Origin: Spizellomyces punctatus DAOM BR117
Lineage: Eukaryota
DNA length: 64,000 nucleotides
Strand: one strand, 5' to 3'
Assembly (NCBI GenBank): GCA_000182565.2
Contig: KQ257452.1
Shown: positions 5,595-53,654 of the stretch, one piece after another
Layout: every line of letters starts with the position of its first letter
Numbering within the stretch: position 1 is the first letter of the stretch
Translations under genes and position numbers: made by a program
The notes under the pieces: model-generated
What the model was told of the DNA's origin: nothing
The model's database searches: none
What the model saw: only the letters and a program-made list of their open reading frames with translations

Positions 5595-7186
5595 CCCCAG
5601 CCGGAGCGCGACGGCCCTGTTACAGCCGCTGGGATACTCCCAGAGCTAAACAGTGTCCAGTTCTCAATCCAGCCAAGTACGAACGTGAGACAAGCGCCGT
5701 CAGTTGCACTCTGCAAGGACAAGGACCGTTCTCTATCTTGCCAAACTCGGCTCCAATGTTCTTGGTACAAGACCGTCGGCGCCTCCTGCCTTCCCAAAGT
5801 TCTATGCCCTGTTTCTACTTGTCTTTACTCACCGTCATCATGCTCTGCAAAGGAATGGGGCATAGTGTATGGTGTGTGATAGAGTGAGCGTAAGGTCAGG
5901 AATTCAGAGATCAGACAAGTGGCAGATGGTTTGGACAGTGGTGGAATGTGACAGGGGAGATCGTATCAAGGGGAGGAGGTTCAAAAGGGTATGGAACCAC
6001 TATCTATATAATTCGTGGGGGGGTAAAGGATGCTCAAGTGTTCCGCCGCGACAATTGTGGCAGTGCTTTTGACTTTGGAAACTGTCTCTACGCGATCGCT
6101 TTGGACGTTGACAGGAAATGGTGTGAAAAGGGAATCTTTAAAGGACCAAATGTGGGGGAAATTGAACGAGACGTCAGGCTTTATACGCCTGTCATATGGA
6201 TAACAACGGGGAAAACTACGAGTTTTTCACGATACGACAACTTGTGTGAGCCGGAAAAAGCCCGTCAATTCAGCCCAAATCAACACCACCCATCGATACC
6301 ATAATCTGTGTGTGTGTTGAATAACTTATTAACCTCTGACGTTTTTCTTTTGGAGCTTCGGCTGAACGGAAAACAAGCTGCTTTTTCCAATGTTGTTTGT
6401 CTCTGTTTTTTATTTTTCATGTCCCCAAATCGCTTTCAACACGGTTGTTGTTTTGCACACTTGCAAAACGCGCTCGCGTAATCTGAGCGGATCGATTGCA
6501 GCAGGGCTTTTTTGCCGTTCTCCCCCCCTTTCGTCCGCTTCGTCCGCTTCTTCTCCGCCTGTGGGCTTTTCATCCTTTTTGCCCCCTGCGTATTGCAAGC
6601 ATGACAGATGGATAGACAAGAATATCGATGGGACTGGATTGATTAACGGACACTTGTTCAAATGGATTACTAGTATGAAGACGCCGTCATGCCAGTCATG
6701 GAAGTTGCTTTTGGAATACTGCTGGGTTTGTTTTTAGAATACTGCTGGTCATCTTGGGCAAGCAGATGTTGCAAGCAGAGAGTATCTGACAATCCTACTA
6801 AATACGTAGCGACAAGCAATACCTTGAGAGATACTTGTGCAGCATGTACATTGCGTACAATGGACAATATAACATTTCGTGAGCCAACGGATGGGCTGCT
6901 GCTGTTGGAATCTCCTATTCATCGCAAGAGTTCACAGTCATACTTTTGGACAATCTTTGTCTCTCTTGTTTGTCCGTGCCAGGGTGAGCAATGAAAAAAA
7001 AAAAAATGTGTTCAAAAAGTTGTTGAAAGCCAACATCTATCCAAGTTCCCATGGCAACAAGCTGTCATTTGTTTTCCTTGACAGTGTTGGAGTTTCCAGA
7101 AGGCAGCACCATAGCTGAGCTCTTGAGAAACCCATCCAGGACAGTGCTCACGCGACCTTATCGCTCCTTGACTTCAACACTCAACC

Positions 7187-8925
7187 ATGGCACCACCAAA
7201 GAATGACCCCGTCTCCGATGTTGAGGAGGACGACCACTCTCAGAGCGAGGATGAAAACGAACTGTCGTCAAATGTGGTGACCAAATACCAAACTGCCGCG
7301 GACATTGCTAACCGTAAGTGTCCTTCTGGGGAATATAAAGACGCCGGATGGAGGGAGGAATCAGCTATTTGAACGTGTCACCTCCGCGCGGGCTTAACGC
7401 TTATGGAAAAGTACTGTCTCTCATTCACAATTCGTACTGGTGCCGGATACGATTCGGGCATGTGCGTCGGTTGAAAGACTGGGGGGATTTGGAAATACGA
7501 TCACAATAATGTGACATCATACCAGTGTTTCCCGAGTGCAGTTCATTGAAGATCAGTGGCTCCGACTAACTGTATATCACATTAGGTGCTCTGAAGAAGG
7601 TGATTGATGCGGTTGTAGATGGTGCCAAGGTGGTCGATCTCTGTGCGTTGGGGGACCGGACGATTGAGGAACTGGCAGAGAAGGTGTTTAACAAGGGCAA
7701 AATTCTGAAAGGTATACCCTCATCTCTAGATCTCGTAGGTAGATGATGAGATTTTGTATTCACGATGCCGAATATCTATCAGGTATCGCTTTTCCTACAT
7801 GTGTCTCGTCCAACACAGCCATCTGCCACATGTCACCATTGTCCACGGATCCTGAGGGTGCCACCGTCTTGAAGAAGGGAGATGTTGTCCGGCTGGAGCT
7901 CGGCGCTCACATTGACGGTTACATTGCTCAAGTGGCGCATACCGTTGTTATTGGAGCAAGCAAGGTTTGGAATGAGACGCGGCTCTACACGATCGGGGAA
8001 TGGATGTCTAAAGTCTCTCTAGGAAACCCCCATTACCGGCCGACAAGCCGATGCCTTCCAGGCCGCATACCTTGCTACCGAGGCTGCAATCCGTCTCTTG
8101 AAGCCAGGAAAGACCAACGTTGAGGTTACTGATGCGGTTCAATCAATTGCTGAGGATTTCGAATGCAAACCTGTGGAAGGTACATTTCCACTGTGGGGAC
8201 GTGTGATGGGAACACCTTGATTGTAATCTGCCTCCAATTGTTAGGTATGCTCTCACACCAGGTGCTCCGCAATGTTCTGGATGGTAGCAAACAAATCATC
8301 CTAAACCCGACCGAAACTCAACGGAAAGACATTGAAACTCAAACCTTTGAGGAAGGAGAGGTGTACTCGCTGGATATCCTTGTGTCAACTGGGGACGGTA
8401 AGCCCAAGACCCTCGAAACCAGAACCACTGTCTACAAACGGCAACCCGATGTGACATACAACCTCAAAATGAAGACATCTCGTGAAGTCCTGTCCAAAGT
8501 CAATAAGCAGTTTGGATCAATGGCCTTCTCATTGCGACACTTTGATGATGAGAAAAAGGCGCGAATGGGTATCGTTGAGTGCGCAAACCACAACCTTGTG
8601 GTACCGTACCAGGTCCTATATGAAAAGGAGGAGGCTGTTGTAGCGCATTTCATGTTCACCGTGCTGCTGATGCCTGGAGGCCCTCTCAAGATTACGAGCT
8701 TCCCATGGGACCAAGAGCTGGTCAAGAGTGAGAAGGAGATTAAGAGCGAGAACATCAAAGAGCTTTTGAAGCAGCCTGTCAGCAGCAAGAAGGCGAACAA
8801 GAAGAAGAAGGTATGCTTTTTTTTCTTTTCGTGATTATCCATAATTGCGCATGCACTGACACATTACCGATCGGCAGAAGAAGACGGCTGCTCAGAAGGG
8901 GGAGAATGGTGCTGAAGCCAAATAA
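7187..8925 (+). CDS. PA2G4: Proliferation-associated 2G4 / Ebp1 / curved-DNA-binding protein (M24 fold, non-peptidase)
   Basis: VVTKYQTAADIAN, GIAFPTCVS, LGAHIDGYIAQVAHT, KARMGIVEC and a Lys-rich C-terminus; multiple GT-AG introns. Confidence 0.92.
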
Positions 8926-21001: not shown

Positions 21002-22596
21002 ATGCATGCTAGCATCGCACTCCGGACATGCATTCCGAGGATCCACGTCGCGATTGGCCCATGTAGGTGGAGTTACTGGAGGTTACTTGGAGGCCTTTTA
21101 TATACTCATATGGTATGTCGATAGGTTTAGAAGCGTATCGCTCCGCGATCAACACAACCAATTCAAAGGACAGGATAAAGGAACTTGGCAGTGTTTGCGG
21201 GGCCAATGTAAATGTGACACGGCATCGAACAGAGGCACACCTTGTTCGACAACTGGTTGAACTCTTTGATCAAGAAAAGCCGGACTTGATTATTTTGAAT
21301 CCCGGAATATTAGCCCGGGTACGCTGGTTTTCTGGTTTTGCTGGTCTGCCCGATCTATCCCAACATTCCAATACTTTTACATTTACGTAGGGCGCTGTCG
21401 TACTCAAAGGTGTACTGCGCGAAATACATGCACAAGCAGCGGAATGCAAGCAAGCGGTGAATATCCAAGAAGTTATTCCCAAAGTTCTAGATCCATCAGA
21501 TCTGACTTCACTGTGTCCGGCGGGCTCTATTCAAAATCTCGGCGATGCTTCGTACAGTATCGCCATCACGGAATTTTGTCGGAAATTCCATGAAGCCCAG
21601 GCCAAGGCCGCGCTTGCTAAGACTAACGTATCAGAATCGGATCCTGTGCAGGACGAGAACCCAAGAAATGCAACGGTAACTGGGAATAAGCCAGCGGAAT
21701 CCAGAATGACTGATCTTCAGTTCCAGCCAAAACTTTATTCCCGAAATCGAGCCGTGCAGGCTGCGGTTATTGCAGAATCGATACGATTGGATAGATACCC
21801 CTTAGGGGATGAAGACGAGGAAGAAATCCTGCAACGCAACTCTGAGGCGTTTGCCAAATCAGCTCTACTTGGTGAAGGGGACAATGAAGATGGTGAACAG
21901 GTCGCAAGTACTTTGCTCGCCTCAACGTCTGAACAACATCGCGAAGAAATGACGGAAGGAAATGTCCCTGCGATCACAAGCTCGTCGCAACATTCCGTCG
22001 CTAAAGGACAATCCAAGCAGAGAGGATCAAAAGATCATGCCACCAGATTCTCAGAGCATGTTGCGCGAAAACAATATGACAGGGAGTGGAGGAAAGGAAG
22101 GGAGGTCACCAGAAGCCCGGCAGAGGATTCCACACCGAAACGAGAATGGAAAAGTAGAAAGCGAATTTCAGAAAAAGTTGCCCAAGACACCTTACCTCAA
22201 GACACTTCTGAGGCCCCCGCAAACGAGACAATACCGCAGCGTCCACCACGGCGCACCATAACCGTCCTCGCACAATCAACACCTTCGTCACCGACCTTTG
22301 AAAGAAGAGAGATCACACCACAATCAACACCTTCGTCACCGACCTTTGAAAAAAGAGAGATCACACCACAATCAACACCTTCGTCACCGACCTTTGAAAA
22401 AAGAGAGATCACACCAGATGGACCCGATTATGAAAAGATTGCAGATGAATCTTCGTGGCAATCTCCAAATACTATTTCCGAGCAAATCAATGGTCAACGC
22501 CCAGCCGCAGGAGATTATCTGAATCTATTTGAAGAACAATACTTTGGAGAGCTCATCGACAAGCTTGAACGGTCGACATCCACAAAAGACTGGTAG
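21002..22596 (+). CDS. Type II dehydroquinase-like N-terminal domain fused to a disordered, repeat-containing tail
   Basis: Introns 21063-21124 and 21319-21390 give IHVAIGPCLEAY...TEAHLVRQL...DLIILNPG...GAVVLKGVL...IQEV...GSIQNLGDASYSIAI, colinear with the AroQ/QutE consensus. Start codon uncertain. Confidence 0.6.
22273..22416 (+). repeat. Coding tandem repeat, 3 x 48 bp (QSTPSSPTFE[R/K]REITP)
   Basis: Three near-identical copies of caatcaacaccttcgtcaccgacctttgaaa(g/a)aagagagatcacacca. Confidence 0.97.
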
Positions 22597-23478: not shown

Positions 23479-24066
23479 GTTCAATTTGTATATGTGCGTG
23501 GGGATTGGTGTTGGTTTGCTGTTGGCTTTCGTATGGATTCTTTTACGATGTTCTTGCTGTAACTTGAATGCAAAACGTAATAGTGGCAGGAAAAAGGGCT
23601 TTTGCAAATGTCCCTAGCGTTTTTATAACCCCCTCCGATACCAGCCCTTTATCACACATGTTACGTCATGTTCCATCACGTTGTGTACATTACATTGCGC
23701 AGCAGCCATGTGAATCATTTCCAACAACAAGCGATCAAGGCTTGTTGGGAGGAACACTGTTGTGAAAAGTCATTATCATTCACATGGATTGGGGTGTAGA
23801 TTTCTTATCTCCATTGGAGGTCTTTTCTTGCTTTTGACAGCGGGGGGTTCTGTTTGACCTTTAGATTGGACCATCCGCGGTGACCTACGAGGAACAATGT
23901 AAGAGCACGGTTCAAAAACATGCAATGCTCTTTGCGAGCTTTTCTTGAGCTGAGCTGAGGATGTTCTTCATTGGGGGTTGGTCATGTTCTGTATATTGCA
24001 GAGGTTGGATACAAAAAAAGAAAATTCCATCCGCGTAGAGTAAAAACCAAGCGTTGTGTGAAGAAA

Positions 24067-24149
24067 TGGGTGCTGTGAGATTCGAACTCACGCCTCCGGA
24101 GAGACTACGACCTGAACGTAGCGCCTTAGACCAACTCGGCCAAACACCC
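24067..24149 (-). tRNA. tRNA-Leu(CAG)
   Basis: GGGTGTT...AGCACCC acceptor stem, D-loop TGGCCGAGTTGGTCTAAGGC, anticodon arm CTACG-TTCAGGT-CGTAG, long variable arm, T-loop GTTCGAATC. Confidence 0.97.
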
Positions 24150-39256: not shown

Positions 39257-39533
39257 ATACATTGTATGTAGAAGCGATTTTGGATATTTTTGGATTTTGG
39301 TAGATTGTATCTAAAGACTTGAACAAGTTAGCTGACAATTCAATTCCAGTCTGATCATTCGTAGATGCATGTATACTTCTAAGCTACCTGTCCCATAAAG
39401 CCCTAAAAGTTGATCAGCTTACGTAAGTCGGCATAAACGGCTGAGGAGGAGTGACGTGACCTTGCGACTTGGCAAGGAAGCCTCAACTCTCAACACTACA
39501 TTGGAACGAATCCCATAAAAACGGTTGAACGAC

Positions 39534-40619
39534 ATGCCAATCATTTACGGCCTGGTCGCCCGAGGCGCCATCATCCTCGCCGAGCATGCAACGACAACAG
39601 GAAACTTTACCACTGTCACCCAACACATTCTCGAACGCCTACCGGAAGGCGATTCGAAAATGACGTTTGTTTACGATAGGTTTGTTGTTTTGAATATTGT
39701 GTTAGGTGCCATTGAACAGTTGGCTGACGGTATATTGGACTATCAGATATCTATTCCATTACATTAGCCGCAACAACATTACGTATCTCTGCTTAGCTGA
39801 CGATTCATTTGGTCAGTAGATTGGGCGACCATGACATTTTTTCACACCGAACTTACAAATCTCTTGCACAGGTCGTCGCCTCCCATTCGCATTCCTGGAA
39901 GATATCTCCCGCCGCTTCGAAAATGCATATGGAGATAGAGCCCAAACAGCGATTGCATATGGGTTGAACGAGTTTTCCAAAGTGATTGCAACGCAGATGG
40001 TGGGAATTGTCTACATGTTGAGCAAAAATGGTCCATCACTAAATACATGTCGTACCACTGTTTAGGAGTATTACTCAAACAACCAGGGTGCAGACCGATT
40101 GAGACAGGTGCAAGGAGAGATTGATCAAGTGCGAGATGTGATGGTGCACAATATTGGTACGTCTGCCTATCCTATGAATGAACCAACCGCTATCTTCGCA
40201 CGCTGCTAACATCATTCCGATGATTAGAAAAAGTTTTGGAAAGAGGCGAACGCATTGAGATCCTCGTTGACAAAACCGACAATCTAAACCAAACCTCTTT
40301 TGCCTTCAAGAAACGCTCAACGGCTCTTCGTCGACGAGAATGGTGGAAAAACACTCGGTTGATGATCATTCTCGTTGCTGTTATCTTTCTGGTCATTTAC
40401 TTTACCGTTGGAGCTTCGTGTGGGTTCCCTGGATTCCACAAGTGCATTGTGGGTAGCTGTTTTATTTTTGATTGACAAGCTTGGTGTTTTAACTACTTAT
40501 GATAGGGTTCTGACTCCGCCAACAATGTCACGTAAGTCATATCCTAGCATGCGCTGTACGTGTTACACATGTCCCTAACGAGATCCTGTAGGCCAAACTC
40601 TGCTCAACTGCTGGAATAA
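39534..40619 (+). CDS. VAMP7: Longin R-SNARE VAMP7/SYBL1
   Basis: MPIIYGLVARGAIILAE longin start, [41 protein letters not shown], WWKN plus a transmembrane segment. Confidence 0.93.
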
Positions 40620-40934
40620 CGTCTCCCTTCCGTTGATGAGGACACGTAGATTTGCGTCATTTGCAAGTTTGCCACTTGTGCTTGTACCTCTGTTTGTAAA
40701 AAGCGACATATATGTGAATATAAGATCTTGTTTGAACATATTGGGGAGGTTGTTAACGGAAACTCTCGGGTGGACATTTAAATGATTGTGATACGATGGA
40801 CTATGAGCTGCACCGACTCTGGATACTTGGTGATGAGACGTGAAATTGATATCCTCCTACAGTCTTGTTCACTATAGAGTAATTGATGTTTGTCTTTCTT
40901 TTTGTCATATTCGTAACGTCAGTCGTTGATATCT

Positions 40935-41400
40935 TTTCTTTTCATCCTTTTTTCACAATTGGTCTATGACCAGTGCCAACGCAACTATCAGTCCATCTCA
41001 GCCAGGTCCTCCCTCAGCCCGAAGACATATTGGGTATAGCAGCCGCCCCAACCATCGCGACTGCAGTCCATGCAACCACCCACATGCAACATAGTACGAT
41101 CCAGGTCCTCCCTCAGCCCGAAGACATATTGGGTATAGCAGCCGCCCCAACCAACGCGACTGCAGTCCATGCAACCACCCACTCAGGCCCTCCCTCCGCC
41201 CGAAGGCATCATTGGGTTATATCCCTCCGCCCGAAGGCATCATCGGGATATAAGTAGCTGCTCCACACCAGCGCAGACTACAGTCCATCTCAACCACGGG
41301 TCCTCCCTCCGCCCGAAGGCATCGTCAGGTATACCTCCGTCCGAAGACATCATTGGTATAGCAGCCGCCCCAACCATCGCGGGTCTGCAGTCAGCGTCAA
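40935..41400 (-). ncRNA. Putative structured ncRNA: four units plus a partial unit containing six UUCG-capped k-turn-type hairpins
   Basis: Unit = GGACT + stem-loop + one or two [CCC-RAT-GAT-GYC-TTCG-GRC-GGA-GGG] + AGGRCC; compensatory changes in the stems; upstream TATA box; no reading frame is maintained across units. Confidence 0.55.
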
Positions 41401-41436
41401 CCGGTGAAGTTCAAAGCAGGGGGACAAGGGAAGTGT

Positions 41437-41450
41437 GCCTTTTTATAACC
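41437..41450 (-). promoter_or_regulatory. TATA box (GGTTATAAAAAGGC) of the left unit
   Basis: Identical 14-mer to 42303-42316 in inverted orientation; ATTGG (CCAAT) about 100 bp upstream. Confidence 0.65.
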
Positions 41451-41762
41451 GAGGGCGACTGCGCGTTTGGGGTTGTGGGGCAGGGCATGCAACGTAAGCT
41501 TTTCTCTCGAGAAGACGATGACGTTCTAGTCCCTTGAGAGTAGCACCAATCGACGTTGATTTGTAGAACGTGCTTCTACCCCTGGCATCTCCTTGACGCG
41601 CTCGTTCTTCTGCGGAAATTCACGACGAACCTTCTCGACCGACTGCGACCGCCGTAAAACAACTGGACATTAAAACGACATTGAGCATTGAAAGGCTGTC
41701 CATATCCTGCATTGCCTGCTGTTGATATGTGCAAAACGGTCGTTTTCATCCTACTCGAGTAG

Positions 41763-42118
41763 CGTGGGAAAAAGATAAATAAATGACTAACGCGCTCACA
41801 TAGTCATCACACCTTCAAAAGGGGGTTTAATCCAGGAGGGCGACCGCAGGGCTTCTTTTTTGAACATTCGTACAAAACCTATCTGATCACGATTAACTGC
41901 TCAAAGGGGCACTGGAGCACCGACCATCTAGTTGCTGTCGGGTTATGCGAATATTGACAGAGCTTTTTCGAGTGCGACAAACCCCCACATCTAGGCTCGA
42001 CGGAGAGCGATCCTTAAGCAAAACAAGTACTGGACATCCTTTGCTGTCTGTGCATACGATATTCGTCTTTCATATCGTTCGGGCAGGACCGTGGGAAAAT
42101 CAAGATAAACAAATGACT
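41763..42118 (+). promoter_or_regulatory. Duplicated composite motif CGTGGGAAAA..AGATAAA.AAATGACT (41763-41788 and 42090-42118)
   Basis: Direct repeat between the divergent TATA boxes. Confidence 0.55.
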
Positions 42119-42302
42119 CGCTTCATCACGCGTTTACATAATCTTGACTCGCGCGCGTGTGCAAGGGGAACGAACGCATGCCAGGAGGTGAAAACGACGA
42201 CGATGATTGGGCGTTCATGGCGTGCTCAGAAGAATGACGTACGCAGGATACGGAATCTTCCGCCGAGAATTCCGAATGGCAAAAAAAAGCGCAGTTCCCC
42301 AG

Positions 42303-42316
42303 GGTTATAAAAAGGC
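42303..42316 (+). promoter_or_regulatory. TATA box (GGTTATAAAAAGGC) of the right unit
   Basis: Inverted copy of 41437-41450; preceded by GCGCAGT and ATTGG as in the left promoter; followed by a pyrimidine tract. Confidence 0.65.
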
Positions 42317-42339
42317 GACCCTCTCTCGCATATCCCCGC

Positions 42340-42610
42340 ATTTCTCTTCATCTTTCCTTCCGCCTCGGGATGGCATAAAACTCGCTCCAGCCATGGGTAC
42401 TGGCGTAAAACTCAACTCGGTCCAAAAGTATACCGGATAACTTTAAAGGCCGTTGTAGTAATGCAACGTGATAACCTCTTTGAGGTGGGCGCCTGGGACT
42501 GATCGTGTGCGCGCGCCAGAAATGGTAGGAGCAACGACTCGCCGGAGCCTTCGGGCGATGATGGCATCCTCTTCGGGGGAAGGGCCTGTGATAAAGGATG
42601 AAAAGGATGA
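42340..42610 (+). ncRNA. Putative structured ncRNA or 5' leader with a permuted k-turn and UUCG/GAAA tetraloops
   Basis: GGACT + stem containing GCCA-GAAA-TGGT, then GCC-GGA-[GCC-TTCG-GGC]-GAT-GAT-GGC, TCCTC-TTCG-GGGGA, AGGGCCTG, and a trailer shared with the left unit. Confidence 0.5.
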
Positions 42611-42699
42611 AAATGATTGCTAGCCAAACTGCCGTTGAAATCCTATCCAGACACACTCTCAAACGAACGCGATATTGCCTACAAGGCAACGCTCACTTT

Positions 42700-45600
42700 C
42701 TTCCCGCGTGGAACCGACACAGAAATACAACCCTATTATCCACCTGTATACGGCAGGATGTTACTACAAGAGTATGAATGGGTGAACCATAGCGCTGACA
42801 CACACGTTAAGCACGATTCATGAGGGCCGCTCTCGACAAACGAAATAAGTGATCTTGAATAAAACGAGCTGCCCCATATTGGAAGGCACAATTGTGTCGA
42901 CATCCATGAAACCTTGAGAGATTCTGGGTCCGTTTTCCGCCATAGGACACCATTGAGTGGTCCTCACAGCACTGGATGCGCTGATGTGAACGCTTTTAGT
43001 TCGTATCATATCGCTGCACACAATCGACTATTGGATATTTTACTGTTGAACTGCGATGCAAAACTGTTCATTGTTATGTTAACAGATCTGATAAATTGGA
43101 TTGTTCCATTTTTGTGTGCGGATGCGATGCAGGGCTGCCGATGGATAAAAGGATTCTCTGATTTCATGATTGATAATGCGATCCTGGTAAACTAGATGCC
43201 ATCTTGAGAATTATGTGATGCTGATTTAGCTGTCTTTATCTCGGAATCCGATCCCTATGATAAAGTCCTGATGCTGATAGTTATAGCCCTGTTGTGGATG
43301 AAATAGTTCTTTACTTTCCTGCAGATTCAAGCCGACCCTCTTCCTCGAATCTCTGACGTAGCTGTTCGAAACCAAATTGTCAGCAAATGACTCCAATAAG
43401 CTCCCCAGTCGGCCATCAAAGTTGCAAGGTAGGGCATCTATTCTGCAAACCTTATTCGAGGGTGTGGGTTCGTTGATAGTCTATGTCGCAGGCCTGAACC
43501 ATGGAGATCAGGCATGCTTATAATGCTAATGGCATTTACAACCATGCTTTAAGGACTGGAATTCCGGTTTATGTCTTCTTCCTATGGATATTTGCTTCTC
43601 GAGACCACTTTTTTCCTTTGGAATTCCAACACTCCCGCAAAGAATGGGCTATTTCCATCATGTAGCATGTTTCCTCTCAATAGAAAAAAGTATGCCAGAA
43701 GCTCTTTCTTTCTCGAACGCACTTTTGCCAACGGTGGGTTCTAATCCTGTTCAAGGTATCGTCTCAACCATAACCATTAGCTTAAGAAAGGAATATCTGT
43801 AATTTATTTTCAGTTCGCACACATTCGGGTAGCCAAACATCGTGAAGATTTTAGATCTTTAGAGCACTTTATACATCCTTTGGTACATTATTTATTTTAC
43901 ATGTCCTAGGGTCACCAGCTACTAGATGTTTTTCATTAAACACCTGGGGACAATATGACAGCTGATGAAAGATTGAGGCGGAGGCCAAAATTGATTCATA
44001 TGCTTTGCTTATTGTCTTTAGAAACAAGCATCTTACGCTGAAAATGGACCTTGAGCGCAAAAGGTGCACAAACCCGCGTCTGGTGAGGGATGCACCCTCC
44101 CGACGACAACAGGGAACCCCAAAAAAGAAACGCATCAATTATGATAGATATTAGGAACATGTATGACCAGATGCGCTGCCCAGGGATTTCGTGAAATGAT
44201 CCAAATGCAAACTTTATTGTTCGCAATTATCTCCAAACGGATTGTACAGCCTGGAACTGATTATCCAGGACATAATATACTTCCAATGCAATTAATATCC
44301 AGGATTCATGCTAGCATCGATACCATCAACGTCAATGTATGTGGTCGATGCCTTCTCTCAAAGCACAAATAATTATTGGTTTAAAGGTGCTCTCGATAAT
44401 CCCACTGCGAACAGTGACAGAGGTGTCATGCCAAGACCATTTTGCTCTCACTCCTTTAATTGGAAAGTGCTGGCAGGAACTGATGATCCAGGTAAGGTTA
44501 TATCATCGTTTATTAATCACACTCACAAGCTCTCGGTCAATAATTCTGCAGCCTAATGATTGAGTGTGTGTAGTGGGAGTATATTCTAGAATAAGGCTTT
44601 GCACCGACGATATCCTATGACTTGCTTGACGATAGGCGAGTCAAAGTTTTTCAATCAGACATTTAGCAATGTTGACTCAGTCGGAGTGATGCATCGGTCG
44701 ACTTGTCTTGTACTCTCTCGATGATTTCGGAAGTGATACATGTCGAGTGCTTGGATTGTGGGGGAGGACACTTGTTCTCGTTGGCAAATTGGAGATGAAA
44801 TAGAAGCATTACGTTGGAGCATCATAGCAAGTTGCAACTTTAGGATAAGGTATGCTACAAGTTCAATGTGCATGACATCCCTTGCGCCCGATCTTGCTTT
44901 AAGAACAAGTTTCGCGTTACTTTCCAGCTAAACGTCTTAAAGCAAGTATCGAATCCCAAGAGAAACAAAGTTCTAGCATGTGAACATGCTTTGTCGGATC
45001 ACCGGTCCTATGTGGTCTGGCAAGACTTTTCACCCGATTTATCTATCCCGCAGATTAGTGAGAATGTCCTTTATTGCGGACATCAGATATACTGCTTTTG
45101 CGAACGAAATGCGTTATGTACTAGAAGAAACAATTGACATGTAAGCTATGGCAGGGAGCGTTAACTAATCATGCAGGTATGCGTAAGGATGGTATCAGGC
45201 CGAAAACATTGTGTTTTGTTTCAAGAATCATTGAAACTATTCACAGAGCATATTGGAGCACAAGTCGCCATCATTGAATAAGGCCAATCATTCGAAGGAT
45301 ACATTTATGCAATCTTGTGTTGAGAAGCTGATGTCTACGGAAAGGCGTTCATAGTGAGCTTTCACATATTGATAACCGACCGGATTATGTAGCAGATGGA
45401 GAGAAGGTACTCGAGTGTGCTTTACACATGACGGATGACCAGGAACAAAATTCAAGTTGGCGGAAAAAGAACTGTACAAATGCGTGTGAAGAAAGCACTA
45501 TGACGCTCGATTTTCTGTTTTCATTTCGGCAAAGATGAACAGCATTAGGGTCTCACAGTTACTAGGCCCAATTTTTTCAACTCAGCATGCAACATTTGCA

Positions 45601-46995
45601 TATAACCATTGAATTCAGAGGCAAACGCTTCAGCCTTAGATAGAACGCTGTAAAGCGTTGGTGACAACGAGACGATCGTGCCGTTGCCAAACTGCCTCAC
45701 TCAAGAACCTCGATCCTCGTCATGTTGAAATGATAATTGCTAGTACTCGCTCCGATGGAACCGATCAAAAAATAGGATGGCAAAGGTGTCACGAATGATC
45801 CGTCAATTAAATAGCGCTCTGATGTGACATAAGTACCGATCTAGATCTAGCTTGCTGAAATGAGTACAAGTGAGGTCATTATAATCATGTCTTCTTTGCA
45901 TGTTGATTCTTCGCTTGAGACGAATTTTCGTCTTTATTTAATCGAAGGAACCCGAGATTTAATTGATGCAATGGATATCAACAAAGGGGCCAAACTAAAT
46001 GTCGATATGTTATGCTTTCAACGTGCCTACTGCCGAAAAGGCAAATGTTGCAGCTACAGTGTCAACCGGTCGCACCAGACGTGATGTCGGTGCTCTCCAC
46101 GCGACCAAAGGATCTCTCTGATGTGGTCGTTCAAGACTGGATAGTAAACAGCAGACGTCAGAATAGTCCACTAAAAGTATTCCACATTCTTTCATCATAT
46201 TCAGTTCAGTTGGTGCAGGTAAAAAGCACATTCGCAAAGATTATCTCAAGGAGATCACGACACTCTGCTGCAGGACAGGAAATAAACCGTGCAAACAAAA
46301 ATGGTGTAGACGGCATTTTCGAGATCTGGTAGATAAAAGTGATTTTACAAACCCGTGTCCCGAGTCAGACGTACTCTGGTCATCCGTGGTGAGAGCGGTC
46401 AGTTGATGAACGCTGCACACAATGCCCTGATCAGCGGGTGCTAAAAATGTCCCCGAGTACGATTCCTACATCTTTGTGCACGTCATTAGCATTACTCCCT
46501 TTCGCGCAGAGCATTTGTTACTAATCCCGAGCCTATAATATACAAAGATATCTCAAATATAATTGATACTGCGGCTCAAAACGTCGGTTTCTCAGAGAAT
46601 ATGACCGAGTTGAAGATCGCTCTTAACGACGCCGATTTTACGAGTATCAGTCTCGTTCTTCTGGCGTGTACAGAGAGTAGCGGCATGTCTGCACAACATC
46701 GTGTACTCTTTGTTTGTGAAGCAGAGGCGGGACGAATCTTGCAACCAGGGTGCAAAAAGGCGTTCCTCAGGCTAAATGAGGAAGATATTTGTTATTCCCC
46801 ACATTTCTATCTTCAGAGTCTTATGTTCGTTTGTATGACAGCCGGATGAATATCTTGTATTCCAAAGGAACGATAATGTCATGCCCGTGCCAGTGTATGA
46901 CATGCCTATTATCCCTGGCTTTGATGATAAAACTGCACATAGAGATAGGATCCGTTAAACGTACTCGTGAATTTATATTTCCTACCCGCACGTAA
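42700..46995 (+). pseudogene. Probable heavily decayed large gene(s), unidentified
   Basis: Lower GC and no long ORF, but protein-like fragments and an intron-like element gtaagc...ctaatcatgcag (45141-45176). Confidence 0.3.
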
Positions 46996-47418
46996 AAATA
47001 TGGAAGCAACTTTAAAACTTAATCGCTTCCATACTTATTTAATTACTAGTCCCAGCACAAATGTTTAAACCAGAGCACGTGCAAACCTCTCACGAGCATT
47101 TCGAAAGTGAAGGTTAAAGTTAAAGTTACTGACATAATTAACATACATAGTGTGGCGGTGATTGAAAATGGCACTAGAACTCATTATTATCCGGATTAAT
47201 CCGGTTAGTCATATCGCATAATCAGCACCCCCTCTGTCGCCCAAAGCGGTGAGGCATGCAGCGGTGTGGCATGCTAATATGATTTTTTTTTTTAAACTGC
47301 GGTGAGGCGCATGCCAAAGGTCTATAAAAGGGGGGCCTTCTGTCTCTTTCCTCTTTACCCATCCTCGACTCTCGAAGCATCTGCGCAACGCTCACGCAGC
47401 ACTCTCAAGTCCATCATC

Positions 47419-47701
47419 ATGAGAATGCCGCTCTGGTGCCGAGGACCTCGCCCTCCCGACAAAAACAACATAACCCCTTGCAAACGCTGCTACTACTATG
47501 CTGCAACGATCGCAGGTATGCATTATCTTTGTATTTTCCCACGCGGATTATCCAGTCTAATTCTGATCTACCTTAGTATCTGAACATCCTCCGACAAAAG
47601 AATTTCGGAATCAAGGGCTTAGTAGGATTTCTCGCGTGGTGGTGGGCTTAGTTACCCGGTTAGAAACAACCGTAATGTATTGCATGTGTAATTGGGCCTA
47701 G
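47419..47701 (+). CDS. Small 2-exon ORF (73 aa), MRMPLWCRGPRPPD..., paralog A
   Basis: TATAAAA at 47323, phase-1 GT-AG intron 47516-47576, homology to 54888-55221. Confidence 0.45.
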
Positions 47702-50116
47702 TGGTAGTTGGTTGGTTGTAGGGAGGGAATTACTTGGCTTTTCCGAACCGGTTGTCGCCGGTTTATTCCCTGGTGTGGTAGCTAGTGCCAGTTTCTGTCA
47801 CCTCTGCACTAAAATATATTAATATGAGGCGCCGATCCATGGATCAAACCCTGGGAGCGGGTTTAACTTCATTGAGTAGCAGAATCAAACCTTGATTGTG
47901 GGCGTTTTATTTTGTTGGTTATTTATCCGGCTGAAAGATCTCCAAATGAGCGATACCGGGCAATTCAAGCAGCGAGGGCATTTATGAGGCAAGGAATGTA
48001 TATAGTCGGAGGCCTTTTCCAAGACACGAGAGCATGGATGCGCATTGTGAGCTCCAGCGATAATTTGAAATATGTGTCAAAGACCTCAACGCATCAAGAA
48101 TGGAGTAAATGGTTTATAGATTGTCGTTTTTGCTTTAACTTGTCCCTGCGGTAATGTTGGGGGTTTTATTCACTTTCATCTGCAAACACGACATCCATGG
48201 CAATTACTGCATTTTGTGTGACAGCTTGACCGTTTTCTGCTGAGCAGATTTCCTGACATACTCTGGCCCCAAAGCGGCCTACTAGAAGAGCGCGAATGGG
48301 CTTTTCTAGGATACAAACTGCGTTAATGAACCTTGGAAAACTCTGTCACCAATGACGTAGGGCCTATGCGTCAAGCGATTTGCAAAGAGGAAACCCTTGT
48401 AACTCTTGAGCGTGAGATAAAACATTGGAGGTAGAAATCGTTCATTGAGGATGGAGAAATCCCGAACAGAAGGGGATTTGTCCGTATTATTGTCTTTTGG
48501 ACATACAATATTAGTTTGAGGAACGAATGTTTGGGGAACGATATGGATACAGAACTGACTTAATGGATGCTACAAGTACTAGGCAAAGCGGTATTACAAG
48601 ACGGCTCAGTTGATTGTTTTATGCGGCGTCACTCCCGTGCGATAAACCTGGATGTCTATCGTCTTCTTGGTTCAGTGATTAGGTCAATACCAGCCCTTCT
48701 TGCCATCTAAGCCCAAAGCGCGGTTAACACGGGAATGCCTGGAAAAAAGAAATAAGAGCGTGCTATTCGCACAGGGCAAAGCGGTGTCTCATGCAGTCTG
48801 TTGGCTTGACTGTACGGCAGGTGCAAAACTTATGCAAGGGTATACTTGTTGGAATGACTCTTCAGGGCCAATGACGTCCATAAGCAGACATCTTGAAACA
48901 TTAGCCAACATAACCAATACATTGTAAGTGGGTTATTGCTAATTACTTGAATTGATTATTCTGGGTGTAACTGATAGCCAATCTTAACTTGTGCCCCACT
49001 TGTCACTTCACTTACTTACTTGACGGTAGAAAGTAACTAAAGAATAATCTGGCGTACACAGGATTGGATGTTGATGGAATATGGTAGCATGCTGTAGAGT
49101 GATCAGATGTGAAAAAGGTAAATAACCAGTGAATGCTTCAATGATTCCAATGCATTTTCCTCATCTTCCTTGTTCCTTAAACTACAAGTAAATGGCACCG
49201 TTGAGTCATCTTTTCAATGCAAAAAGCCCCAGTACCAGACAGTGTGGGATGGCTCGTTGAGTAAAAATTGGGGACTAAACACACCCACTATTATGACCAA
49301 AAGTGTAATTCGGAAAGATACAAAAAGGGTGTTGAAAAGATCTATGAGTGATACCCAATAAGTTGGTATAGAATTTCCCTGCTCTACTTTCATCACGTTC
49401 GTCCAACATCGAATTTCTTTCGTTGTCTATAAGAATGTTGCAAATCGGGTGAACCTCGCAAAGGGAAACTCGGTTTGTGGGATGGTTCCTGCTGGGCATT
49501 AGGTCACGGTATATATACAAGTGCACAGAGTTCCATCTGATACAATTCATCCCAAGCTGCCCCGTACGGAGGAGCATCTAATGGGGTTCAAGATGAGGAA
49601 TGTTGCAAGGCTGCATCCGGTCTCTGGTACTCTGCAAGATCAAATCTTCTTCGAGTGCATTGGTTGGACCGTTGCGTTGGATATTAGATTATCTTCGCAA
49701 TGACATATAACAGTCAGCGTTTTGATAACGGTAATCAGCAGCGAGTTGGGAAAGGTTTGGACTTGTCCACAGCAAGGATGGAGGGCATAGTACAAAACAA
49801 TCTGTTTCCAAGGCATGTTCTTGCGTGCGGGCTACTCGCTACGGCGAATTCTAACATGCGTCCTTTATCAAATGAAAGATGCAGCACTTTATTTCCTTCT
49901 TTACAACGTGACTAGGATGCAGATGCCGAGAGTAAAAGATGGTTCTCGAAAATATGAGGCTCTAAAGATTGTCCAAAAGTCTGGCACGTACCAGCGAGGA
50001 CAATTCCATGCTAACTATGCATGACCAGCGGTTCATGGTCTCTCGCGATACGAAGATGCTTACGGTACATGACAAGACTAAACGACGGAATTGTTCTTTG
50101 TGATTCATGAGCTCCT

Positions 50117-51111
50117 CTAAGCTCCCAGTTTGGTCATTGCCTCCATCACCATCGCATTGCACCTACATATGCAAAACAATTTGAGCAACACAGTTCATAA
50201 TCACGGACCAGATCGCAACGTACATTTTCGCATACGGATTATTCCGCACAGCAGCTTTTGCAACCTCGTTCCCGTATCGTGCTCCTTGGGCAAAATCGCT
50301 CTCCGCACCCGCAGCGTCCCCCTGCGATTTGCGGATAATTGCTCGTTGTGTATATGCCTGATTTGGCAAAGTTGGGTCAGCACACTTGTCGTGTAGTCAG
50401 GCTGGATGGAACAGGTACCTGTTTGAGGACTGATGCATTTCCTACACCGTATTCAAGTGCCCGCTCTAAATCCTCCAAAGCCTCCTTTACTTGTCCTTTG
50501 AGACGGAACGCTTGTGCTCTGCACAGAGGTGAGCACACATAAACAACACAAACTGCACCCGAATCTTGTGCCTTGCCACATACCGATTGTTGTATGCACT
50601 TGCATATTCCGGGCAAAGAGATATGCATTCGTTGAGCTTATCGATACTCCCTACGAGATCATTGTGTTCCGCAAGGATGACGGCCTCTTGTTCAATCATT
50701 TTGAGACGAGTGAGTGTCATGGAATCGATGGCGGGTAGTGTGGTTGCTGTTACGAGGGCATGGGGATGTCAAAATATTTGATCTGCACAGTGTCACCAAA
50801 GACATTTACCATTTCCAAGGAGTGGTTCATCATCCAACGCCAGCCCCGAGTCTATAGAGAGAGAGTGACAAGAGCCGGTTTCGGTCAGGTTGATTTAAAG
50901 AAACTGTTTTGCCGCATGGGTCTTTTAGCACATACCAGGGTTGAAAATGAGATTCAGAATGTTCTTGCAACGCAGCATATCATATGAAAATCAGATGATA
51001 TTCACAAAAAGCGGAGCGGCCGGGGACAATGCATCATTGCTCCTCATGGTAACCCACCTCGTCGTGCCGGCTGACCGCACTGACAGCGGCCCCATTCCCA
51101 GGTTGTTCCAT
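50117..51111 (-). CDS. TTC36: Tetratricopeptide repeat protein 36 homolog
   Basis: Spliced product SRHDE|NILNLIFNP...ASAYNNR|AQAFRL...AYTQRA...NPYAKM|CNAMV. Confidence 0.88.
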
Positions 51112-53654
51112 TGTGGTTGGTCTGCAAAATGGGGTTCCGCTCAATGTACGTGAGCATATTCCGCCCGTTCGAAACCACACTCCATCCGATTATGTCGTTC
51201 AATCACATGCTGCCACATGATCCGATTCCGGTTGCTCTACACCTGCTGACGTTAACCTACACTTGCTGACGGCAGATCGGGCATCCGCCCCATTGGCACC
51301 GGTTCCAAAACCGAGGCTAAGAAGAGGTTCGGATGAGACCGGCTCCAATCACTGCTTTCGGAGGGCAAGTGGCGCCGCCCGAGCCTCTTGTGAACGGCAA
51401 GCACATGACTAAAAGTTTATCCAATCCATCCTTGGGATTGCCCCCCAACCAGTTGCATTACTCCCGCAAGGCGCGGATGAAATATCTCGTTTTCATTGAA
51501 TAGGGGGCACTATGGGGGGGAGGCATGTGTTATCTCTTTGGCTGTTACGACCTGGCAATCTTTTTTATAAATCTGTACATCGTTCCACCTGGCATCTCCT
51601 TTAACGAAGGTTGGGGGCCATGCGTGAGATACGCTTCTTCTTCTTCTTTGACCCTCTGTTCTTGCAACAGACCCCACTCGAAAAAAAAGGCCCACGGACG
51701 AAAACGGATCACATTGGCCAAGACTTCCGGTCCAACGCACCATTTGTGTGATCGTGAGTTAGCCTGGCGCGTATCTGATAAAACTCCTCCTCTCATTTGC
51801 AATATTCCTCTCCTGGAGTTTATTTGGGTGACACGTCGGAGGAAAAGACATCCGCGTTTGCAAATGAGACTTACTCTCCTTCCACAGAGAGAACGTTTTT
51901 GTGGGCCAGACTCTGTCTTCCATGCCTGGAGCGGGTTTTTTTTTCCTTGAAAGCTGATCTCGACTTGAACGGGAATTAATACTTTCCGCGGAACGTGTCT
52001 GTCCATGGATCAGGGTCGTGCGTGATCTCATAATCAGTCGGTCATCGCCACCACATGACGGGGACGCGTGCCGTTCACTCGGTCCCTTGGGTCTGCACCA
52101 GGAGCATCGGGCGCACCTCCCAGGGACAACGGACTCACGGGAAAATGGCAAACGCCCACATGTCCTTGCACAAGCGTTTTGCAACTTCAGGGTCAAGTGA
52201 AAAGCCATGGGAGGCGTACCAGAACAAGAATTTAAAGAAATAAAACTTGTTTACAAAGCCCCACCCGACCAACGGGGTGTGTGTGGTGCATACTGTACCT
52301 GGCGTCTGGCGGCATGTCACAAATCAGGACAAGATGAGAGCGTACCTCCATGTCGTCACTCTGCCGTAGTTTCCAAGGTGTTTTCCCCCCCCCATGCGTG
52401 TGTGTAGTGCGTGTGTTTGTCAATAGTACAATGGGGGCGATAGCGCCCATTCAATTGTGGAGATCACTTGTATATTTTTTCAAACATGGCGTAATTGTTT
52501 TTTTTATTACTAGATGCTAAAACGAGCATGAATCATTCTAGCTTTTCCCCTCACTTTTGCACGCGCATAAAAAGCAATTCTGGGCCTCGACAACAATCTT
52601 GTTCTCTAGCGCGCCGATGGAATAAGTTGGGAGGGGGGGATCCGAGCCCGTGTCTTTCACTCCTCCACAATATGAGTGGTTTACAAGAGCGACAAATTGA
52701 CAGTTGAACGCAAATTGCGGTTGACCCGCATTGTACTGCGGTTTTGATTTTCTCTCGTCTTTTTTTTAATTTTCAATACGAACAATAGGGGGCGAACAGA
52801 GCAAAAGGGCGCTGGCGGTAATAAAAACTTTTTGCGCGTGCAGGTCCGTGTCAAAAAGAAAATAACGGAACAACGGAAGCTCCACGATGATACAAAGGGC
52901 AGACGCATGACTGCGCCATGAGATCAGTGGCTGACTTGTTCACGTGATGCGTCCTGAAGCCAACATTCTGGTTAACCTTCGCAACATCGGTCGAACTAGA
53001 ATCGTACCTTACCACGTTTACGTCACTTGTGTGCGCCGTTCTGGGATTAGAGGGCGGTGCTCCAAACTCTCCGGGAATGTGGATCCATGCAACTAGGTCA
53101 TGGAATTTGAGCCCCCTTCCCCTTTGTTCCCCAAATCTGAATGTTGTTGGCAGGAGAAGAAAGATCCAATTATCCTCCAAGGTCTTACGCATCTGGCCTC
53201 CTTTTCACCCCCCAGGGCATTTCCCTCCCAGAGTCCTTTAGGGTTCAAAAGAGCATTATTGCCACACACACACACGGCGGAATCGTCGTAGACAAGTGCT
53301 CTCGCATTTCCGTTAAACACTTCTTTTTTTTTTTATCCCTTCTTGTGGCCCCCTGCATTCCCTTTTTTTTTCCGTGTCTCTGGGCGGGCTCATTATAACA
53401 GACGCATTTTGAACAAGTCGTTTGGGCTCTGTGCAAGGATCTCTCTTTGAACGTTAACGTAGCCATTATAAAAAGCCCTCTCGTCCTGGTCTTTTTCCCC
53501 GCAAGTCAACTTTCAAATATTCCTTTTTTTTTATCTTGTTACCATTCCTTTTCCCATCGTGAGGCTTTTCGCCATCGGCAAACCTCGTTCAAGCCTCAGA
53601 TCCCAAACGTAAAAACAACAACACGAACAACAACTCCCGCCGTTCATCAAAAAG

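Follow-up and report, generated by a model that had tools for sequence, protein, structure and literature searches.

A tandem array of candidate kink-turn hairpins in an expressed noncoding RNA of Spizellomyces punctatus

What would a cell do with an RNA built largely of kink-turn (k-turn) hairpins? The question is raised by positions 40,935 to 41,400 of a 64,000-nucleotide (nt) stretch of Spizellomyces punctatus DAOM BR117 DNA (contig KQ257452.1 of GCA_000182565.2; the whole stretch is called the window). An earlier inspection of the letters, here the sequence-only reading, had reported six such hairpins on the minus strand and proposed a new noncoding RNA (ncRNA); all six hairpins are present. 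We propose that the locus is an expressed, TATA-driven ncRNA gene of ~460 nt on the minus strand, made of four tandem modules. Each k-turn would bind one L7Ae-family molecule, Snu13 being, we infer, the most likely, and the RNA would form a multivalent ribonucleoprotein (RNP) platform that scaffolds, stores or titrates this protein, possibly with its partners. We hold with moderate confidence that the array RNA is such a platform for about four copies of an L7Ae-family protein.

K-turns bound by Snu13 or L7Ae are known as single architectural sites in small nucleolar RNAs (snoRNAs), U4, ribosomal RNA and a few leaders. According to an extract of PMC4382518, Snu13/15.5K, L7Ae, eL8, eL30 and Nhp2 bind the k-turns of U4, box C/D RNAs and the ribosome. 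The same extract states that folding of k-turns in metal ions alone is set by position 3b.3n, where a Watson-Crick pair is poor and a G at 3n permits folding, and that the U4 k-turn (G-C at 3b.3n) and the box C/D k-turns do not fold in metal ions alone.

The hairpin array

The six cUUCGg-capped hairpins, designated H1 to H6, lie on the minus strand between 41011 and 41360 (Table 1). Searched with up to three mismatches, the pattern GATGYCTTCGGRCGGAGG has six matches in the 64-kb window, all on the minus strand within 41011-41351, against 0.15 expected from shuffled sequence; none of 100 shuffles reached six. In H1 to H4 the elements follow one order: C helix, 3-nt bulge, G-A, U, three pairs, UUCG, three pairs, G, G-A and C helix. 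At the level of sequence these four of the six hairpins carry the standard k-turn consensus, with tandem G.A/A.G pairs, U.G at 3b.3n and G-C at 4b-4n. The sequence-only reading had placed all six in its k-turn array, noting that two variants lack the 1b G, and the k-turn label stands for H1 to H4; H5 and H6, without the G at 1b, depart from the consensus. As 3b.3n is U.G in H1 to H4 and in a further element of the sister gene RNA2, described below, the folding rule excerpted from PMC4382518 predicts that all of these would fold readily without protein.

Which protein would bind is suggested by the details of the strands. The 5' strand of H1 to H4, AUGAUG[C/U], matches the box C consensus at six of seven positions, and on the 3' strand CGGA takes the place of the CUGA of box D. 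Snu13 would be the most likely binder because of this box C-like strand, because position L3 is U in three of the four hairpins, and because the NC helix starts with U and then G-C. In the minimum free energy (MFE) structures from RNAfold, all five distinct hairpins form stem, 5+2 loop, stem and UUCG. Energies are lower on the minus than on the plus strand (-7.4 vs -5.1 kcal/mol for both H1 and H4, -15.1 vs -11.2 for H3). The UUCG caps, the G.U pairs, these energies and strand-specific RNA-seq all identify minus as the RNA strand, as the sequence-only reading had held when it proposed the stranded check that has now been run.

The hairpins belong to four tandem modules, A to D, on the minus strand from 41412 to 40985. 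In each of them ...GGACUG leads into a stem-loop S of 26-28 nt; the word UAUA comes next, then either a single small hairpin or a pair, and last a G-rich spacer starting AGGRCC. In the double modules two k-turns stand side by side (H1+H2 and H3+H4). By copy number, with four consensus k-turns in ~170 nt of an expressed RNA, the transcript would count as a multivalent long noncoding RNA (lncRNA) arraying sites for an RNA-binding protein. H3 and H4 can also pair with each other in a shifted register at 41205-41231 (-), the 3' half of the former with the 5' half of the latter, and the k-turn so formed is capped on its C helix; tandem k-turn hairpins thus have two alternative registers.

Differences between the modules preserve pairing. 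At two pairs of the 8-base-pair (bp) S stem, module B has U-A where the other three modules have C-G, with both sides changed; a third pair is C-G or U.G, and none is broken. Pair 5b-5n of the hairpins is C-G in H2 to H4, U-A in H1 and U.G in H5 and H6. The variants that had been listed for the hairpin stems (GCC/GGC, GUC/GAC and GUC/GGC) are real and keep their pairing, and so is the covariation noted in the upstream stem (GCAG/CUGC versus GUAG/CUAC). By a rough post hoc estimate over three distinct sequences, the chance that four stem substitutions form two exactly compensatory pairs is ~0.002. Between modules A and B identity is 89-100% in the k-turn cores and 49-71% in the spacers; module B agrees with the other modules at 69-75% in the S stem-loop, and the cores of H2, H3 and H4 are the same. 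Stem pairs were tabulated by script, MAFFT alignments having been set aside for misplaced single-base gaps.

Judged from its sequence, the repetition is the product of tandem duplication. Tandem Repeats Finder reports a period of 99 nt (1.8 copies, 98% matches, 41002-41182) and one of 31 nt (2.0 copies, 93%, 41191-41252), and a repeat search found a 31-nt unit six times at 71-100% identity.

Transcription of the array and of its sister gene

Of ten sequencing runs listed for a 3.5-kb stretch around the locus, four were aligned. One of these, X8, consists of raw RNA-seq reads labelled with the same species and shows that the family is expressed; run X9 gave no alignments, which is no evidence of absence. 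The array is covered by first-mate-on-minus reads only, with depths of 731, 447, 192 and 44 in bins running from 41405 down to 40938. The edges are sharp, depth being 0.3 in the bin upstream (41406-41522) and 3.8 in the one downstream (40821-40937). The neighbouring plus-strand gene, which has GT..AG introns at 40449-40505 (46 reads) and 40532-40591 (62 reads), reads first-mate-on-plus, so the array RNA is minus-sense.

The minus-strand 14-mer GGTTATAAAAAGGC, at 41450-41437, precedes the edge of coverage by 35-50 nt; it has three matches in the window, where 0.42 would be expected. An almost identical TATA word, GGTTATAAAAACGC, occurs at 23617-23630 (-) upstream of an ordinary protein-coding frame, so the TATA part is not confined to ncRNA genes, and specificity for them lies in the flanking GCGCAGT..CCC alone. 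At the other end, AGGATGAAAA occurs six times in the window against 0.32 expected. Because two of its sites, at 6567 (-) and 7248 (+), are far from the ncRNA cluster, a general 3'-end signal is suggested, and the word may be this organism's general 3'-end or polyadenylation signal. Reading the sequence downstream of the array, we saw no T-run of the RNA polymerase III (Pol III) terminator type. The array RNA is probably made by RNA polymerase II (Pol II) from the TATA promoter, an earlier suggestion that the TATA element upstream makes plausible.

A second gene, RNA2, shares these signals. Its first-mate-on-plus depth in X8 is 600, 884 and 87 in three bins, and a 214-nt contig from a random-primed RNA run (X1) is identical to 42377-42590. 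It folds with z = -2.43 (3 of 200 shuffles equally good) and has no long open reading frame (ORF). Against Rfam at E<=10 it gave nothing relevant (ceN40, 13.2 vs 35 bits; sR43, 10.1 vs 45 bits). With nhmmer on the window, a profile of the modules found the four modules only, and RNA2 found only itself. Short modules are common to the 3' part of RNA2 and the array. RNA2 has a k-turn core as in the array (bulge GAU, G.A/A.G, U.G, G-C), in which UUCG caps the C helix and not the NC helix, and this element carries the standard k-turn consensus at the sequence level. Since RNA2 retains the core despite a permuted topology in an otherwise different RNA, the k-turn itself would appear to be under selection, and we regard the retained core as the strongest internal argument for such selection. 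The array gene is part of a multi-copy family that includes RNA2, and the promoter element and 3' motif define a class of small-RNA genes in this organism. RNA2 also contains an internal 30-nt duplication, GGC[A/G]TAAAACTC.

Table 1. Positions in the window of the array gene, its sister gene RNA2 and their elements
Feature	Position	Strand	Remarks
Array RNA, transcribed region	40945..41405	-	~460 nt, ends approximate; RNA-seq coverage 40938-41405
Shared promoter element	41437..41468	-	32 nt, includes GGTTATAAAAAGGC; 84% complementary to 42285-42316; TATA at ~41440-41447
S_A, module A stem-loop	41361..41388	-	8 bp and a 2-nt bulge
H1	41330..41360	-	k-turn hairpin by consensus; C helix 6 bp; bulge AAU; NC helix U.G and GUC/GAC
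H2	41305..41329	-	k-turn hairpin by consensus; C helix 3 bp (one G.U); bulge GAC; 0-nt spacer to H1
S_B, module B stem-loop	41254..41281	-	GUAG-U-CUGC / GCAG-CUAC; two double compensatory changes vs S_A, S_C and S_D
H3	41218..41252	-	k-turn hairpin by consensus; C helix 8 bp; bulge GAU; folding z = -2.67
H4	41192..41216	-	k-turn hairpin by consensus; C helix 3 bp; bulge AAU; 1-nt gap from H3
S_C, module C stem-loop	41138..41163	-	8 bp; folding z = -3.13
H5	41110..41133	-	variant hairpin without the 1b G; 3' strand CUGA; U.U at 3b.3n
S_D, module D stem-loop	41039..41064	-	
H6	41011..41034	-	sequence same as H5; from a 99-nt duplication (98% matches)
Shared 3' motif, TGTGA[A/T]AAAGGATGAAAAG	40938..40956	-	where read coverage ends
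RNA2, sister ncRNA gene	42345..42600	+	ends approximate; ~900 nt from the array, divergent
RNA2 promoter element	42285..42316	+	same 14-mer TATA element inside a 32-nt element, 84% identical to that of the array
RNA2 permuted k-turn	42541..42566	+	GCCG-GA-GCC-UUCG-GGC-GAU-GA-UGGC; MFE frequency 0.91
RNA2 3' motif	42593..42614	+	two overlapping copies
AGGATGAAAA sites	6567-6576 (-), 7248-7257 (+), 40939, 41743, 42595, 42604		

Several other features of the window were recorded. A possible third small gene lies at 41745-41850 (-), with a diverged duplicate ~330 nt away at ~42070-42135 (-); it has the promoter-like word GCGGTCGCCCTC, a box C-like word GUGAUGA, a hairpin of 6-7 bp and the 3' word AGGATGAAAA, and its depth in X8 is below 1. 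At 22287-22409 (+) a 27-nt word, GTCACCGACCTTTGAAA..., occurs three times at 48-nt spacing within the reading frame 21391-22596 and is probably a coding repeat. The ~12 kb from 39300 to 51500 hold no stop-to-stop frame of at least 150 amino acids (aa), and contain the ncRNA cluster and an intron-rich plus-strand gene at ~39534-40820. A Pfam search of three neighbouring ORFs gave an aldehyde dehydrogenase fragment as the sole match.

Weighing the explanations

A number of observations weigh against the platform. H5 and H6 are probably not k-turns, as far as their sequence tells; L3 of H2 is C, not U; and three C helices have just 3 bp. The whole 428-nt stretch folds with z = -1.34, with 10 of 100 shuffles equally good, and only two of the eight minus-strand elements folded singly fall below z = -2 (H3 and S_C). 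Modules C and D are, by their sequence, a very recent duplicate, conservation of the cores could be mimicked by gene conversion among repeats, and the comparison, which spans one locus and its sister gene, has little statistical power, since the distinct hairpins number five and the distinct S stems three. Metagenome contigs, viral contigs and the protein collection yielded no homologue from outside this genome. The reads add to these points, with 7916 of the 8468 aligned reads matching only partially and ~1000 departing from the window sequence past 41395/41396. Expression of this exact copy is likely, with part of the signal coming from other copies.

The evidence for such copies is of several kinds. 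Letters other than those of the window appear at many positions in 15-65% of reads, read joints reorder the hairpins (for example 41090 to 41299 with seven inserted letters), and DNA contigs (X2) include a hairpin-only match (34 nt of a 554-nt contig) and a promoter-only match (40 nt of a 1162-nt contig). From these and the partial reads it follows that non-identical copies, whether paralogues, alleles or strain variants, contribute signal. Read ends at 41395/41396 and 42375/42408/42531 were considered as template-switch tags marking 5' ends; this was rejected, since the loose ends have a C-rich consensus that looks like the window's own upstream sequence in diverged form, and they are read as other copies. 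Single look-alikes are common by chance, a loose scan of the window for k-turn hairpins having returned 31 rows for one strand and 32 for the other. Given these look-alikes and the weak z-scores, it is clustering, covariation and expression that carry the case, and not folding energy.

Could the locus belong to a catalytic or sensing class already known, namely the self-cleaving ribozymes or the riboswitches, or be a diverged form of a known snRNA or snoRNA (U3, U4, U8)? K-turns are present in U3 (B/C), U4 and SAM-I, and the one meaningful Rfam row on the array is SAM-I at 41205-41231. That row covers the k-turn of P2 alone, here formed by the shifted register of H3 and H4, scores 14.7 vs 44.4 bits, and is the sole row to suggest a curated ribozyme or riboswitch. 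All 4227 Rfam models, run on the whole window at the gathering score, gave a single match, a tRNA gene at 24067-24149 (-) with 54.9 bits; at E<=10 the array had four chance-level rows, and nothing came near threshold at either locus. The sequence-only reading had recognised no known RNA, and the Rfam search it proposed likewise matched no family. No U4 or U3 model matched at E<=10 at either locus, and the features that define these RNAs (U6-pairing stems and an Sm site; A'/A, C'/D and B/C boxes) did not come together at either. Neither an Sm site nor a region to pair with U6 was seen by eye in the array sequence, nor were U3 A boxes. SECIS elements have an AUGA/GA quartet, a helix II of ~12 bp and an apical A-rich loop; in the array the helix past the G.A pairs is four pairs and a UUCG loop, and Rfam gave no SECIS match. 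We consider membership of a known class very improbable. Scarcely credible is a small repeat-peptide gene. A minus-strand ORF of 60 aa does exist at 40988-41170, with a 23-residue stretch occurring twice with one difference and both repeats in frame across the 99-nt duplication, yet that one recent duplication accounts for the in-frame repeat. Modules A and B show stops or other frames, so that no ORF is kept across modules, and changes between modules keep RNA pairing, not codons. None of four ORF translations is present in the protein collection, and a 122-aa antisense ORF has no relatives there, its one candidate having failed to score.

Two further explanations accept the RNA and differ on its use. 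It is unlikely, in our view, that the transcript is a polycistronic precursor of small box C/D-like RNPs with short guides or none, cut into hairpins of 25-35 nt or hairpin-to-hairpin pieces of ~110 nt. The modular repeats do resemble polycistronic snoRNA genes, AUGAUG[C/U] matches box C at six of seven positions, and H5 and H6 have an exact CUGA, with a box C lacking its G. However, 60-nt reads cross neighbouring hairpins and modules and no pile-up of molecule starts or ends is reported; box C RUGAUGA and box D CUGA by a terminal stem do not occur together in H1 to H6, nor does the array have a guide of at least 10 nt upstream of box D/D'. The UUCG closes the helix four pairs past the G.A pairs and so leaves no room for a single-stranded guide, and no box C/D covariance model scores on the array at E<=10. 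Under the other explanation the array is no more than a rapidly evolving tandem repeat in a transcribed noncoding locus that has no function or acts only in cis, and its hairpins look conserved because the copies are young or are homogenised by gene conversion; we think this quite unlikely. Modules C and D being 98% identical across 99 nt, the identical cores of H2 to H4, copies that differ in unit number and order at the read joints, the lack of homologues in the collections searched and the weak z-scores would all fit it. Yet the S stem-loop of module B is down to 69-75% identity with every stem change compensatory, H1 has a double compensatory change, and RNA2, also assembled from X1, keeps the core in another topology and an otherwise unrelated body. 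High expression and the conserved promoter and 3' motifs speak on the same side.

The search for relatives extended to a degenerate hairpin 21-mer, which had no match in viral contigs and matched 11 stretches in metagenome contigs. These were rejected as chance, being single matches in contigs of 60-67% GC with no second hairpin or matching C helix; their flanks resemble bacterial coding sequence, and by a rough estimate their count is about the chance expectation. The family is known from this organism alone, which reflects the reach of the search and is not evidence of restriction. A literature search that did not cover supplements found no description of such an RNA, no paper for the hairpin sequence itself, and no structured k-turn array described for an L7Ae-family protein.

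We return to the array RNA as a platform for L7Ae-family protein. The k-turn, the UUCG cap and the box C-like strand are known; new is the architecture, an abundant, independent transcript arraying guide-less k-turn hairpins, in a gene family that has a promoter and a 3' motif of its own. RNA2, the further genomic copies, the six-of-seven match to box C and the probable loss of the k-turn in H5 and H6 go beyond the sequence-only reading. A highly expressed RNA made mostly of k-turn sites, its core reused by sister genes, would be a new use of the motif. Snu13 is a subunit common to the U4 snRNP and the box C/D snoRNPs, and such an RNA would offer a handle on how cells buffer a protein common to splicing and ribosome biogenesis. 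We speculate, although we think it rather unlikely, that the arrays store or titrate Snu13 and so couple spliceosome and ribosome-biogenesis capacity, or that they nucleate a nuclear body; if true, they would be the structured-motif counterpart to decoys of the NORAD or meiRNA type. The promoter element and 3' motif common to the two genes offer a means of locating other RNAs that are still unannotated.

Comparison with known systems

The U4 5' stem-loop, the site of 15.5K/Snu13, is like the array hairpins a stand-alone hairpin without a guide. Its NC helix has two pairs and a pentaloop, whereas that of the array has four pairs and UUCG; the array, moreover, has no U4 body or Rfam U4 match and carries the hairpin in 4-6 copies per RNA. 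Common to both are the C helix, the asymmetric 5+2 loop with its 3-nt bulge (AAU for H1 and H4) and tandem G.A/A.G pairs, and a short NC helix with a cap, features set out for U4 in part by an extract of PMC4382518. That extract gives G-C for 3b.3n of U4, whereas the array has U.G and is predicted to fold without protein.

To box C/D snoRNAs the array is likened by AUGAUG[C/U], which agrees at six of seven positions with box C, by G-C at 4b-4n and U at 3b as in stem II, and by CUGA with U.U in H5 and H6. The adjacent pairs H1+H2 and H3+H4 recall the two k-turns of one snoRNA. The array differs in that the 3' strand of H1 to H4 is CGGA, not CUGA, in having no guide, terminal stem or box D arrangement, and in being a transcribed repeat array with a TATA promoter of its own. 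Were the array a precursor, its products would be comparable to the tiny SNORDs of mouse (extract of the tiSNORD preprint). With U3 box B/C the likeness is to RNA2, a Pol II-type transcript of ~250 nt whose bulged strand lies 3' of the cap, presumably as in B/C; RNA2 differs in giving no U3 match at E<=10, and A/A' boxes and a C'/D terminal motif were not seen in it.

The autoregulatory hairpins of archaeal L7Ae are, according to extracts of PMC5539422 and PMC6298567, small stand-alone k-turns that act as L7Ae-binding switches. They are single sites in mRNA leaders, whereas here a eukaryotic ncRNA carries an array with no downstream ORF.

NORAD and meiRNA are repeat lncRNAs that bind protein multivalently. 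In lncRNAs of the PNCTR type, as an extract of PMC6224606 describes, tandem modules each carry sites for one RNA-binding protein and yield a scaffold or decoy, an organisation that the array shares. The sites in PNCTR, NORAD and meiRNA are short linear motifs for PTBP1, Pumilio or Mmi1, whereas those of the array are structured k-turns, putative sites for an L7Ae-family protein.

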